64,000 nucleotides of DNA, taken from NCBI GenBank assembly GCA_903879985.1, contig CAIRNR010000007.1:69382-133381 (forward strand), written 5' to 3'. The notes under the pieces were generated by a model, which saw only the letters and a list, made by a program, of their open reading frames with translations, was not told the DNA's origin and searched no databases. This DNA is from an uncultured candidate division WWE3 bacterium. Lineage in GTDB: Bacteria; Patescibacteriota; WWE3; UBA101185; UBA10185. Below, in pieces: positions 9,191-13,114 of this stretch; the first letter of the stretch is position 1, and the number at the start of each line of letters is the position of its first letter. A program made the translations under genes and the position numbers.

Positions 9191-10807
9191 ATGAAAACTA
9201 TAGATAAGAATATAAAAATATTAATAATATTGGCACTTTTAGTAAGTGTAGCGTCTTTTGCCTACTGTTATAATTTAGCACAACTCAACTTAAAGTATGG
9301 CGATTCACTATCTAGATTAAATATATCGAGAAAAATAGTAGACAACCTAACACCTGGATTTGCACAGCTTGGAAATATATGGTTGCCACTTCCGCAGATA
9401 TTGATGTTACCATTTGTTTGGTCCGAGAGGCTTTGGCATACTGGCCTGGCGGGTTATTTAATGTCCGGCGCAGCATATGTGGGGATAATTGTATTCTTAT
9501 ATAAGCTTTCTCTATTATTATTTAATTCAACTCGTGCTGGTTTTATCGCGGCTATTGTGGGCTTATTGAACCCTAACCTTATTTATTTTCAAACAACAGC
9601 CATGTCTGAAATCATATTCATATTCACTTTAGTAGGGAGTGCTTATTTTATAGCGAAGTGGATTAAAACTAAGGCGATTTACGATTTATTGTTAGGAGCT
9701 CTCTTTGTTTCCTGTACTACACTAATACGCTACGAGGGGTATTTTGTTCTGCTAATCTCCATTGCGCTGGTTATCTACGTCGCTTATCTAAAAGGAAAAA
9801 AACTAGCGACAGTGGAAGGCACAGCAATAATCTTTACTACTCTTGCTGCCACAGGTGTTATGGCATGGTTACTTTACTGTGGTTTAATATTTAATGATCC
9901 ATTCTACTGGAAGAAGATCTACTCCGGGGAAAACTCCATTATATCTACCGACATTGTCTCTAAAAAAATTAGAACAGATCAAAATGCCGTAAAAGCACAG
10001 GAAGGTGACATCATTAAATCTTTGTATGATTATGGAAGTGCTACGGCACAAATGAACGGAATTATTTTAACATCCGCGACATGTCTATGTTCATTAGGAT
10101 TTCTTGTATATTTAATAAGAAGAAAAGCGTACATACATAAACCTGAGTTGCTAGTGATAGTACTGCTAACCGCCCCCCTATTATTTGTAGTAATGACTTT
10201 ATATAAAGGAAATATTCCGCTTTATTTACCAGCGTTGAGTCTAAAAGCATTACTTAATCGAGACACAAGCTTACAATACGAATACAATATTCGATACGGC
10301 CTACTTATGTTTCCATTAGTAGCAATTCTATTCAGTTGGCTCGCAAGTAAAAGTAGAATGTTGTGGTGGATTTTATTATCGATTTTGTTATTGCAAGTCT
10401 TTACTGTATTTTTTACTCCCTTTTACACCATCTATAGCATTCCAGCAAAATTAGCGTCGACTGATCCAGGAACTAATTACGGTAAAAACGCGGCGAGTGA
10501 TTGGTTGAAGATAAATTATGACGGAGGATTAATACTAATTAGTGCCCTAAAACATGATCCCGAGATGTTTTATTTAGGAATAGATTATAAAAATTTTATA
10601 CATGAAGGAACCGGACACTACTGGTTAGAATCCGTAAAAATGCCACAAAAATATGCTAAATGGATTTTTATGTACAAACAAAAGAACACCACAAATAGTA
10701 TAGAGGATTCGGTGACTAAATACATATATGATATGCCGCAATTATACGATAATTTTGATACGGTTTATGATGATGGCACTTACGTAATATTTAAAAGAAA
10801 GATATAA
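9191..10807 (+). CDS. Polytopic membrane protein, putative GT-C-fold glycosyltransferase (ArnT/PMT-like), with about 11 TM helices and a C-terminal soluble domain.
   Basis: Multiple hydrophobic helices. The conserved first-loop segment SRKIVDNLTPGFAQLGNIWLPLPQILMLPFVWSERLWHTGLAGY is shared with the 11606..13114 paralog. The C-terminal ~120 aa are hydrophilic. Confidence 0.5.
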   Translation: MKTIDKNIKILIILALLVSVASFAYCYNLAQLNLKYGDSLSRLNISRKIVDNLTPGFAQLGNIWLPLPQILMLPFVWSERLWHTGLAGYLMSGAAYVGIIVFLYKLSLLLFNSTRAGFIAAIVGLLNPNLIYFQTTAMSEIIFIFTLVGSAYFIAKWIKTKAIYDLLLGALFVSCTTLIRYEGYFVLLISIALVIYVAYLKGKKLATVEGTAIIFTTLAATGVMAWLLYCGLIFNDPFYWKKIYSGENSIISTDIVSKKIRTDQNAVKAQEGDIIKSLYDYGSATAQMNGIILTSATCLCSLGFLVYLIRRKAYIHKPELLVIVLLTAPLLFVVMTLYKGNIPLYLPALSLKALLNRDTSLQYEYNIRYGLLMFPLVAILFSWLASKSRMLWWILLSILLLQVFTVFFTPFYTIYSIPAKLASTDPGTNYGKNAASDWLKINYDGGLILISALKHDPEMFYLGIDYKNFIHEGTGHYWLESVKMPQKYAKWIFMYKQKNTTNSIEDSVTKYIYDMPQLYDNFDTVYDDGTYVIFKRKI

Positions 10808-10869
10808 CGCTAAAACATTCTAGACATGAATATATGTAATATATTTGGGAAATAGCTTGACTACTATCA

Positions 10870-11625
10870 ATGCTTAAAAAAATAATGAAAGTAATAAGAT
10901 CCTCTGCAACAGTATTATTGACCATTGCGTTATTATTTTATGTTTTTCAGAAAGTATCTTTTCTAACTTTAGTGACTCTATTTTCAATAACAAATACCCA
11001 ACCGATTTTTAACGCTTTTTTACTAACAATTCCCTGCATTCTTATAAAAATATATAAAAGCAAACTTCTATCAAAAGAAATTTCAAATAAAAACCCGGCT
11101 AAATATGAGTCACTCTCATTTATAGATACCGTATCCGAAATGTGGGTTGCCTTTTTCTTTGTGCTGTTAGGAGGCCAGAAATTACTGAGCGGCATGTATT
11201 CCACCATTGCCATTATAATAATTACAGCTATCTTTATATTTCTATATCAATTTAGACACATAAACAAAAATATTACAAAAATTATACCGTTGGTTACATG
11301 GATATCTTGGCCTTTATCCAACATAATTTTAGTCTTATCATTTCTTTCTATGGCGTTGTACCTTACTCAAGCTTACTTGTTGCTTTCGGCTTTTCAGACT
11401 GTGGCGATCTCCACAATACTAGCAGTATTCCCAATCGTACTGATGGTTGGCCTTTTGCCGTTTACGTTTGGTGGACTTGGCCTGAGAGAGCTAGTAGCAA
11501 TTTACCTTTTGGCGCAGTTTGGCGTTTCAGCACCGGTAGCAGTAATCGTAAGCATTATGCTTTTTGTATTTGATACACTTATTCCAGATGTATTATGGAG
11601 GGGCGATGCAAAGGCCATTCGATAG
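10870..11625 (+). CDS. UPF0104 / lysyl-PG-synthase-TM-like (PF03706-type) membrane protein, a putative lipid-linked-sugar flippase.
   Basis: 8 or so TM helices. C-terminal LPFTFGGLGLRELVAIYLLAQFGV resembles the LPxTxGGxGxRE signature of the flippase-like domain that is often found next to GtrB-type GT2s. Confidence 0.5.
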   Translation: MLKKIMKVIRSSATVLLTIALLFYVFQKVSFLTLVTLFSITNTQPIFNAFLLTIPCILIKIYKSKLLSKEISNKNPAKYESLSFIDTVSEMWVAFFFVLLGGQKLLSGMYSTIAIIIITAIFIFLYQFRHINKNITKIIPLVTWISWPLSNIILVLSFLSMALYLTQAYLLLSAFQTVAISTILAVFPIVLMVGLLPFTFGGLGLRELVAIYLLAQFGVSAPVAVIVSIMLFVFDTLIPDVLWRGDAKAIR

Positions 11626-13114
11626 ATTTGAAAAATATGTTTGGGTTGGCGCTATATTAGTATCCCTTGTTGCTTGGTACATATCCTTTACCCACGGTTA
11701 CGTTCTTACTTACAACGATGCCGCGTCACATTTGAATATCGCCCGACGTGTTTTCGACAACCTTACACCAGGTTTCGCGCAAATAGGTACCGTATGGCTA
11801 CCACTTCCACACATACTAATGCTTATATTTGCTTGGAATGATTTTTTATGGCATACGGGTTTAGCAGGCAGCATTATATCTATGACATCTTTTGTTGTCG
11901 CCGTTGGTTTTGTTTATAAAACAGTGTTTAAGCTCACAAAAAACCCGTTTGCTGCCACTTTAGGTGCAACCGTAATGATACTTAATCCAAACTTTTTATA
12001 CCTTCAAACAACACCAATGACTGAACCCTTGCTAATTGCTTTAATATCAATAATTGCATATTTAGTTGCATGTTATATAGAAGATCCTAAAGTCGAAACC
12101 ATTGTACTGTTAGGAGCATTTGTATCTGCAGCTACACTTACAAGATATGACGGCTGGTTTATATATTTAACTTTATTGATAACCTTGCCTGTCTGGAATT
12201 TAGTTAATTATGGTAGAGCAAAAGCCGAGGGCGCATTGTTTTTATTTGCACCAATTGGTGGTTTCGGAATATTTTTATGGTTTTTATGGAACTTAGTGAT
12301 ATTTGGTGATCCACTTTATTTCATGACAGGTCCCTATTCTGCATATACACAACAAAGATATTTGCATAGCGTTGGGCAACTACCTACCGAAGGTCATATT
12401 TGGACTTCCATTTTTTATTACGTTTCGTCCGTCATAGATAACAATGGCTTGAGTGTATGTTGTTTAAGTATAGTCGCACTAGCGATTTGCGCTTTTGCAT
12501 TTAAAAAAAGAAAGATAGTACCAATTATATTAATAGCACTCGCTCCACTGGTATTTAATATAATTTCATTGTTCCTGGGACAGTCAGGAATGGACGTACC
12601 ACAGGCTGCAATTAATCCAGGGCTTTTTAACATTCGCTACGGGTTGATAATGTTACCTGCTATTGCTATTTTAGTAGGTTTATTAGCGACGCTACCAAAA
12701 GTTAAATATTTTATTTTAGCTATACTGCTTGTTCAATTAGGATTATTTGTAATGCAAGGTAAACCAATTATCCTTGTAGATGGAATGAATGGTTTAAAAA
12801 GTACAACCTACACTGTTGTCGCAAGTAAATGGATTAAAGAAAATTATCAAGGAGGCTTAATATTAACAAGTCTAGCATCCCACGATGCATTTGTTGCACG
12901 AGCACAACTTCCAATTAGAGATTACGTACATGAAGGTACTAGGGAATACTGGGATCATGCGCTATTTCATCCTTCAGGTAATGTTGAATATATAGCCACT
13001 ATGGTTTATCCTCCAGATCTAGTATACAAGGCAATAAAAGACAACCCAGATTTTATAAAAAATTTTGACCTCGTTTATTCGTATGATACTTTTAATATAT
13101 ACAAGCACAAATGA
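11606..13114 (+). CDS. Paralogous GT-C-like polytopic membrane protein (second copy).
   Basis: ARRVFDNLTPGFAQIGTVWLPLPHILMLIFAWNDFLWHTGLAGS is near-identical in pattern to the 9191..10807 product. The start was chosen at the ATG at 11606, preceded by the SD ggagggg (11597-11603). The ORF-track start at 11564 would overlap the previous gene by 62 nt. Confidence 0.55.
   Translation: MQRPFDRFEKYVWVGAILVSLVAWYISFTHGYVLTYNDAASHLNIARRVFDNLTPGFAQIGTVWLPLPHILMLIFAWNDFLWHTGLAGSIISMTSFVVAVGFVYKTVFKLTKNPFAATLGATVMILNPNFLYLQTTPMTEPLLIALISIIAYLVACYIEDPKVETIVLLGAFVSAATLTRYDGWFIYLTLLITLPVWNLVNYGRAKAEGALFLFAPIGGFGIFLWFLWNLVIFGDPLYFMTGPYSAYTQQRYLHSVGQLPTEGHIWTSIFYYVSSVIDNNGLSVCCLSIVALAICAFAFKKRKIVPIILIALAPLVFNIISLFLGQSGMDVPQAAINPGLFNIRYGLIMLPAIAILVGLLATLPKVKYFILAILLVQLGLFVMQGKPIILVDGMNGLKSTTYTVVASKWIKENYQGGLILTSLASHDAFVARAQLPIRDYVHEGTREYWDHALFHPSGNVEYIATMVYPPDLVYKAIKDNPDFIKNFDLVYSYDTFNIYKHK

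Follow-up and report, generated by a model that had tools for sequence, protein, structure and literature searches.

Tandem GT-C-like paralogues and a glycoside-hydrolase-like partner in a conserved surface-sugar gene cluster of a candidate division WWE3 bacterium

The 64,000-nt stretch of DNA analysed here (the window; contig CAIRNR010000007.1, positions 69,382 to 133,381, assembly GCA_903879985.1) comes from an uncultured candidate division WWE3 bacterium and carries two paralogous genes for GT-C-like membrane glycosyltransferases. The upstream gene, paralogue A (positions 9191..10807 of the window, plus strand), encodes 538 amino acids (aa), and paralogue B (11606..13114, plus strand) encodes 502 aa. 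The B open reading frame (ORF) opens at 11564 and would give 516 aa from its first TTG (11564..13114), but gene callers and the database start it at the Met codon at 11606. Between the two lies a gene for a 251-aa membrane protein related to PF03706 (LPG_synthase_TM, 'flippase-like'; 10870..11625, plus strand). B is followed by a gene that we call Dn (13111..14397, plus strand), whose start overlaps the B stop by 4 nt and whose product has a predicted TIM-barrel domain of glycoside hydrolase (GH) clan GH-A and a CarboxypepD_reg beta-sandwich. The genes from 4607 to 14397 all run in one direction, and the spacing between neighbours ranges from -58 to +83 nt. A and B most likely attach sugars outside the cell as part of a conserved surface-sugar cluster, which amounts to a variant of a familiar type of glycosylation system and includes ancient paralogues of a mostly Patescibacteria GT-C family. 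A first-pass annotation, made from the letters of the window, had described A and B as tandem GT-C-like paralogues with a common first-loop block and differing C-terminal soluble domains, separated by a flippase-like gene; the ORFs, the paralogy, the loop block, the GT-C fold and the flippase-like gene all stood, and the differing C-terminal domains did not.

The two proteins align by BLASTP over their full length with 179 of 542 positions identical (33%, E 4e-80), and a global MAFFT alignment gives 36% identity over aligned columns. They are thus tandem paralogues on the same strand, related at 33-36% from end to end, and a tblastn search within the window found no third copy of the family. 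Identity along the A-B length is uneven; the uniform divergence that the annotation took as the mark of ancient unrelated paralogues was not seen. Conservation peaks in a block of the first extracytoplasmic loop (EL1), where identity reaches 68% in a 40-aa window against 15-40% elsewhere. The block spans residues 46-88 of both proteins (9326..9454 in A and 11741..11869 in B, both on the plus strand), and 30 of its 43 residues are identical, which agrees with the near-identity noted in the first pass. Gene conversion was considered as the source of this likeness and ruled out: the two blocks are only 63% identical in nucleotides, the same codon is used at only 8 of 26 identical degenerate residues, synonymous sites in the blocks are saturated, and the longest nucleotide run common to the two genes is 12 nt. 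The block is kept by selection at the protein level.

An alignment of 149 family members shows which parts of the loop are held constant. R47, P55, G56, Q59, G61 and the W64-L65-P66 run are invariant, and two acidic residues, D38 and D51, are at least 90% conserved; both lie in EL1 after the first transmembrane helix (residues 7-29 of the B model), D38 just before the block and D51 inside it. Comparison with other GT-C enzymes makes it likely that D38, D51 and the invariant loop residues serve in catalysis and donor binding. EL1 is the best-conserved region in every within-clade and between-clade comparison (identity 0.67-0.83 within clades, 0.55-0.69 between them). This conservation is family-wide, and it is therefore not diagnostic of neofunctionalisation in the A-B pair.

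An AlphaFold2 (AF2) model of B, built on the 149-sequence alignment, has a pLDDT of 95.6 and a pTM of 0.94. Used as a query against the PDB with Foldseek, it gave 27 matches at E <= 1e-3, all of them GT-C enzymes: these include STT3/OST (the oligosaccharyltransferases, 8e-7), ArnT, AglB, ALG12, DPY19, PglB, Pmt4, ALG9 and AftB, with AftA and EmbA/B/C falling just outside this threshold. The polytopic membrane module and the conserved first-loop acidic residues of the GT-C superfamily are both found in the B model and, through its end-to-end alignment with B, in A, so that the GT-C-like label holds at the level of the fold. Sequence identity of B to these matches is 10-15%, and the family of A and B has no close characterised relative. 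It has no dedicated Pfam model and no solved structure that can be detected by sequence: searches of PDB sequences with B or with the 149-sequence profile gave no matches, and A has no meaningful match in Pfam or NCBIfam. The flippase-like protein likewise matched no PDB sequence. A search of the literature on the CPR (candidate phyla radiation) or Patescibacteria found nothing specific to the A/B family or the cluster.

Comparison with the better-known GT-C families gives likenesses and differences in each case. ArnT of Cupriavidus metallidurans (GT83; 5f15/5ezm) gives the best superposition with B and the top TM-score (0.57-0.58 by query, 0.54 by target), and it is similar both in size (about 540 aa) and in layout, with a small soluble alpha/beta domain placed C-terminally to the membrane module; B is, however, only 14% identical to it, superposes with a root-mean-square deviation of around 9.6 A, and has no sequence-level match to it. 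To our knowledge lipid A, the acceptor of ArnT, is not expected in a cluster of this kind. The GT66 enzymes STT3, AglB and PglB give the lowest Foldseek E-values to B (8e-7 to 1e-4), but identity is 11-13% and their C-terminal domain is much larger than that of A and B. GT66 oligosaccharyltransferases carry a WWDxG motif in this domain, whereas neither the A nor the B sequence contains 'WWD'. The window cluster also differs in encoding a synthase of the mono-phosphate-sugar type and no oligosaccharide assembly pathway. Protein O-mannosyltransferases (PMTs, GT39) are the only Pfam family with any signal in B, and Pmt4 and Pmt1/2 are among the fold matches. The match of B to PMT_2 (PF13231; E 3e-4) scores 21.4 bits against a gathering cut-off of 26.1, and A has no match at all, so neither protein reaches the GT39/PMT threshold, although some relatives have precomputed PF13231 or PF02366 matches and NCBI calls some orthologues 'glycosyltransferase family 39 protein'. 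PMTs have an Asp-Glu pair in loop 1; in its place D38 precedes Ser in A (YGD38S) and Ala in B (YND38A), and both proteins lack a MIR domain. The Foldseek alignments of Pmt1/Pmt2 and of Saccharomyces cerevisiae Pmt4 to B span only about 265-290 columns.

The protein encoded by Dn was also modelled with AF2 (pLDDT 95.6). It has an N-terminal signal-like helix and is predicted to be secreted or anchored. Foldseek matches are to GH10, GH157, GH5, GH39 (PslG) and GH1 enzymes (E 8e-12 to 1e-7). E251, at the end of strand 7 (246-252), is invariant among homologues, as is E154, which with the near-invariant E156 follows strand 4 (at about 148). In the model, then, Dn has the barrel and the glutamates after strands 4 and 7 that define clan GH-A, and would be hydrolase-like at the level of the clan. 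Sequence searches say less: PF11790 gives a weak match in 39 of 93 Dn homologues, and PDB sequences give only chance-level matches to Dn. PslG (5bx9; E 1.3e-9, TM-score 0.50/0.52) offers a parallel, being a clan GH-A barrel with a beta-sandwich inside a polysaccharide cluster; it is only 12% identical, and Dn differs in being paired with, or fused to, a GT-C enzyme. We know of no such pairing or fusion for PslG.

The pairing is widespread. For the comparison of neighbourhoods, a profile of the B clade was used to collect 80 genome loci, and B orthologues are present in 12 of them. A Dn homologue lies at most 3.5 kb downstream of the GT-C gene in 68 of 76 loci, and at most 300 nt downstream in 58. 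In some relatives the two are joined in fusion proteins of about 920 aa (P0022, P0023, P0032 and P0048); in P0023 the part fused to the GT-C protein is 39% identical to the Dn hydrolase domain (E 1e-63). Because these fusions have no hydrophobic segment between the GT-C C-terminal domain and the secreted GH domain, the C-terminal domain of A and B would likewise lie outside the cytoplasm. This association of a GT-C enzyme with a GH-A domain lay outside the first-pass claim and is the most interesting aspect of the locus.

Three glycosyltransferase (GT) genes precede A. The first (4607..6811, plus strand) encodes a 734-aa double GT2 protein, with an N-terminal domain like the polyprenyl-phosphate-sugar synthases DPMS, ArnC and GtrB and a C-terminal half like the membrane synthase BcsA. 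Pfam places Glycos_transf_2 at residues 9-171 and Glyco_tranf_2_3 at residues 350-578; among PDB sequences, residues 7-214 match Pyrococcus Dol-P-Man synthase (5mlz, E 1.4e-24), ArnC (E 2e-15) and the GtrB-like sll0501 (E 3e-12), and residues 340-633 match cellulose synthase BcsA (E 2.8e-12). Two GT4 enzymes follow, GT4a (6895..8100, plus strand; Pfam Glycos_transf_1, E 5e-46) and GT4b (8043..9188, plus strand; Glycos_transf_1, E 3e-23), the latter ending 2 nt before the A start. Where loci extend at least 9 kb upstream, homologues of the 734-aa protein and of GT4a are each found upstream of the GT-C gene in 39 of 55 cases, and a GT4 gene stands directly upstream of the A-clade orthologues in L083 and L084. 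In locus L023, on a Levybacteria chromosome, the BcsA-like part is fused instead to a GT4 enzyme (990 aa) and the DPMS-like domain is missing.

The gene between A and B is harder to annotate. Its product falls just short of the PF03706 cut-off (E 1e-7, 32.2 bits against 33.4) and is likewise under the cut-off for TIGR00374, 'flippase-like domain' (E 2e-6). Orthologues between the GT-C genes of three other loci (L001:4118-5026, L003:9118-10020 and L004:9088-10002) are clear members: they have 301-305 aa and match the full PF03706 model (E 6e-31 to 9e-16). The candidate flippase of this system is accordingly a PF03706 member, of neither the GtrA nor the Wzx type. The first-pass statement that a flippase-like gene separates the copies is thus true of the window, and its orthologues match PF03706, but the arrangement is not conserved among relatives. 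The window protein may be a degenerating or minimal variant. An ABC transporter (14423-16246, minus strand) was considered as a conserved flippase and rejected, since only a few loci have homologues of it, which are 27-32% identical and not fixed in position. A 91-aa ORF (11298-11573, plus strand) lies in another frame inside the flippase-like gene; its counterpart at L081:211-486 was called as a gene on a short contig in which the real one is truncated, and the ORF is very likely a gene-calling artefact.

Do the two copies do the same job? The annotation proposed that a preserved catalytic loop is combined with different acceptor-binding C-terminal domains. The C-terminal extracytoplasmic alpha/beta domain comprises residues 396-502 of B (12791..13111, plus strand; helices and strands from residue 401 to 501 of the AF2 model) and, by alignment to B, residues 425-538 of A (10463..10804, plus strand). 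Compared alone, these domains are 36.5% identical over 104 residues (E 3e-18), above the 29% of the membrane core without the loop, and four residues within them (E443, G444, P456 and D471 in B numbering) are invariant in the 149 family members. The idea that the domains differ does not survive these homologies; they are two copies of a single domain, with a divergence similar to that of the remainder of the protein. A subtler signal was found in the clades to which A and B belong. Conservation of the C-terminal domain is 0.52 within clade A and 0.67 within clade B, which ranks it with the best-conserved regions there, but only 0.30 between the clades. Dividing between-clade by within-clade conservation gives 0.50 for this domain, compared with 0.65 in the first membrane block and 0.77 in the loop. 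We defined clade-fixed sites as those at least 85% conserved within the A clade and within the B clade with differing residues. There are 19 of these among 81 doubly conserved sites, with 8 in the C-terminal domain, mostly in one patch (B421-437, A450-466), and 3 in the mid loop. Pooling the two regions gives 11 fixed differences in 26 sites against 8 in 55 elsewhere (Fisher p = 0.01, odds ratio 4.3). A change of acceptor or partner specificity could produce such a distribution, which lends mild, indirect support to that idea.

We put at about 60% the probability that A and B are ancient GT-C paralogues, each moving a polyprenyl-phosphate-linked sugar to an acceptor on the outer face, likely a glycan, with the copies differing in acceptor site, linkage or partner. 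On this reading the DPMS-like N-domain of the 734-aa protein, which belongs to the right family, would make a polyprenyl-phosphate-hexose at the cytoplasmic face. The lipid-linked sugar would then cross the membrane, perhaps with the PF03706 protein from the gene between A and B as its flippase. A and B, through D38, D51 and the invariant R47/Q59/W64-L65-P66 block, would each transfer the sugar to an acceptor on the outer face, a step to which their fold and conservation point. The acceptor would most likely be a glycan, for example the product of the BcsA-like and GT4 enzymes, as synteny and fusion suggest, and Dn would bind or trim the same polymer. A glycan is favoured because the GT-C enzymes are paired with or fused to Dn and because BcsA-like and GT4 enzymes are encoded in the cluster. 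That A and B probably differ in acceptor site, linkage or partner is suggested by the concentration of clade-fixed substitutions in the C-terminal domain and mid loop, the catalytic loop being shared.

Several observations weigh against this reading. The lowest Foldseek E-values are to oligosaccharyltransferases, enzymes that act on proteins, and a Pro/Thr-rich surface protein encoded just upstream leaves room for a protein acceptor. The DPMS-like domain is not in every related cluster, as its absence from the L023 counterpart shows. In most relatives the PF03706 gene is missing both between the copies and near them, so that it is not obligatory in the system, and the window protein is shorter than its orthologues by about 35 and a further 9 internal residues, including 'TPSRIGELGR'. 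The enrichment of clade-fixed sites is modest, with p = 0.07 for the C-terminal domain alone.

The best of the other explanations, unlikely but deserving of attention, is that A and B are protein O-glycosyltransferases that act in the manner of PMT or PgtC2, moving a polyprenyl-phosphate-hexose onto Ser/Thr residues of Pro/Thr-rich linkers. A candidate substrate is the upstream 1469-aa surface protein (78..4487, plus strand; Pfam Laminin_G_3, Ig-like, fn3 and CarboxypepD_reg domains), in which a long Pro/Thr-rich linker (PLPTPLPVTTPAPT...PVPTPTPIVRPTVPGNHNPTPTP) is followed by hydrophobic segments; a linker of similar kind is present in the first ORF of L023. The weak PMT_2 match of B, the PF13231/PF02366 matches and GT39 names of its relatives, and the presence of Pmt4, Pmt1-Pmt2, OST and DPY19 among the fold matches all fit such an activity. 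There is also a precedent: in streptococci GtrB and a GT-C enzyme, PgtC2, glucosylate Ser/Thr-rich disordered regions (PMC11092751). On the other side, the Pfam PMT models are not reached and the loop-1 Asp-Glu pair is missing, a carbohydrate acceptor is suggested by how tightly the GT-C enzymes are paired with, or fused to, a domain of glycoside-hydrolase fold, and the 1469-aa protein is linked to the GT-C genes by adjacency and shared strand only.

The relatives of A and B bear on the remaining alternatives. The family is large (at least 1,228 clusters at 50% identity, found at E <= 1e-30 in a profile search of 1.84 billion representatives), and its nearest relatives come from Roizman-, Levyi-, Woese-, Davies- and Amesbacteria and from metagenome-assembled genomes (MAGs) named 'Patescibacteria group', so that, judged by these, it is centred on Patescibacteria/CPR. 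Contigs L003, L007-L010, L016-L022 and others are titled 'uncultured Gammaproteobacteria/Pseudomonadales' (TPA_asm MAGs), and one 'Omnitrophota'; these labels look unreliable. P0031, which is 40% identical to A, has the NCBI label 'Candidatus Anstonellales archaeon' (DPANN), which could reflect lateral transfer from one ultra-small lineage to another or a binning error. Clustering of 232 full-length members gave at least four clades, namely B (74 members, 59% mean identity), its sister 'C' (36), A (20 members, 46%) and its sister 'D' (86), with identities of 31-39% between clades. B has about 75 orthologues at 52-62% identity and A has orthologues at 42-50%, compared with 33-36% between A and B. 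By these values A is the faster-evolving upstream copy and B the conserved one.

Whether relatives carry one copy or two, a check proposed in the first pass, can be answered from gene order. Three contigs with A-clade orthologues (44-50% identical to A) carry, in this order, a GT4 gene, A, a B-like gene (508-510 aa) and a Dn-like gene (431-445 aa), and no gene lies between A and B. Of the 12 loci with B orthologues, 11 have a second member of the family as the next gene upstream, which belongs to clade D in six, is divergent but B-like in three, and is of type 'o2' or very divergent in one each. In 64 of 80 loci there is a lone clade C copy with Dn behind it. Several clusters of this kind can be present in one genome (L010 and L058, L017 and L029, and L027). 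Gene order thus suggests that B and Dn are the conserved core and that the upstream copy, here A, occupies a more variable position. A variant arrangement is found in L023 (8363-11575), where a 1070-aa ORF joins a divergent GT-C-like N-terminal half to a family member; this may be a genuine fusion, or else a pair of genes in frame that lack a stop between them. A sortase-like gene lies about 1.6 kb downstream of it.

A second copy just upstream of nearly every B orthologue is what would be expected if the two proteins were an obligate heteromer, like Pmt1-Pmt2 or EmbA-EmbB, that has no independent specificities and whose divergent surfaces are subunit or Dn interfaces. Both of these complexes (6p25 and 7bvc) are among the fold matches of B, and A and B alike retain all invariant residues. 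However, the upstream partner comes from a clade that varies by genome (A, D, 'o2' or very divergent), which is unexpected for a co-evolved A-B interface, and clade C makes do with one copy and Dn in 64 of the 80 loci. We therefore regard an obligate heteromer as doubtful.

The first-pass version, a recent lineage-specific tandem duplication in which one copy gained a new acceptor-binding C-terminal domain, is highly improbable. In its favour, the genes are in tandem on one strand, and divergence has spared the loop more than the rest; but A and B belong to separate deep clades, many genomes carry orthologues of each, the A-B-Dn order recurs in relatives only 44-50% identical to A, synonymous sites are saturated with no common run beyond 12 nt, and the C-terminal domains are homologous. 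The separate clades, the orthologue identities and the saturated synonymous sites make the duplication an ancient one, with A and B in separate orthologous groups. What remains of the idea of a neofunctionalised duplicate is the non-uniform divergence and the clade-fixed sites in the C-terminal domain and mid loop; distinct domains, recent duplication and a diagnostic loop have to be given up, and with the duplication shown to be ancient the claim is of limited interest. It is also very improbable that one copy is a dead, regulatory or scaffolding pseudo-enzyme: A is the candidate, its clade being less conserved than that of B (46% against 59% mean identity) and A itself lacking any Pfam match, but it is a full-length ORF free of frameshifts, keeps D38, D51 and, like B, all 21 residues that are invariant in the 149-member alignment, and its orthologues are maintained across genomes.

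The preferred reading, that of two ancient paralogues transferring lipid-linked sugars to what is probably a glycan, has counterparts in the literature. In three-component or multi-component transmembrane glycosylation, a C55-P-sugar made by a GT-A enzyme is translocated by a flippase, and its sugar is then passed by a GT-C enzyme to a polymer of the cell wall on the outer side (PMC8035078). Like the CsbB-GtcA-YfhO, GtrA-GtrB-GtrC and GacI-GacK-GacL systems treated there, the window has a GT-A polyprenyl-phosphate-sugar synthase domain, a candidate flippase and a GT-C protein with a large extracytoplasmic first loop, encoded together beside surface-glycan genes. It departs from them in four respects: a single protein joins the synthase domain to a BcsA-like synthase; the place of GtrA or Wzx as candidate flippase is taken by a PF03706 (MprF-TM-like) protein that is dispensable in relatives; there are two tandem GT-C paralogues; and there is a clan GH-A hydrolase-like partner, nearly always adjacent and sometimes fused. 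The same review speculates that small GT-C enzymes may need a second protein for acceptor binding (PMC8035078), a role that Dn, by analogy, would fit.

This leads to a tentative proposal, which we regard as possible and not as probable: that the conserved unit is 'GT-C plus secreted GH-A domain', adjacent in about 89% of loci and in some fused, rather than the pair of paralogues, and that it forms a hitherto undescribed extracytoplasmic module for building and remodelling a glycan, the GH-like domain acting as an acceptor-binding or transglycosylating partner. Several copies of the module per Patescibacteria genome of about 1 Mb would then make a lineage-typical surface polymer, with tandem copies adding different sugars or linkages. 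The genomes of Patescibacteria/CPR are tiny, these bacteria rely on cell-to-cell contact, and their surface coat is largely obscure; a large share of the window neighbourhood is devoted to a conserved surface-glycan cluster. The pairing of a GT-C enzyme with a secreted GH-fold protein offers a lead both on how small GT-C enzymes recognise their acceptors and on the identity of the polymer.

Some minor features of the window and its relatives may be recorded. In L084 (13132-17638) the A-B-Dn genes are followed on the opposite strand by genes resembling those of a type IV secretion system (T4SS) or of conjugation (a TraG-like P-loop protein, a TraC-like protein, a T4SS pilin and an M23 peptidase). 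The window has no rRNA genes. Beyond its cluster lies a PemK/MazF-like toxin ORF (16529-17210, minus strand; E 2e-18), preceded by a small partner ORF without a Pfam match. A tRNA gene on the plus strand (16468-16540) shares about 12 nt with the 3' end of this toxin ORF.

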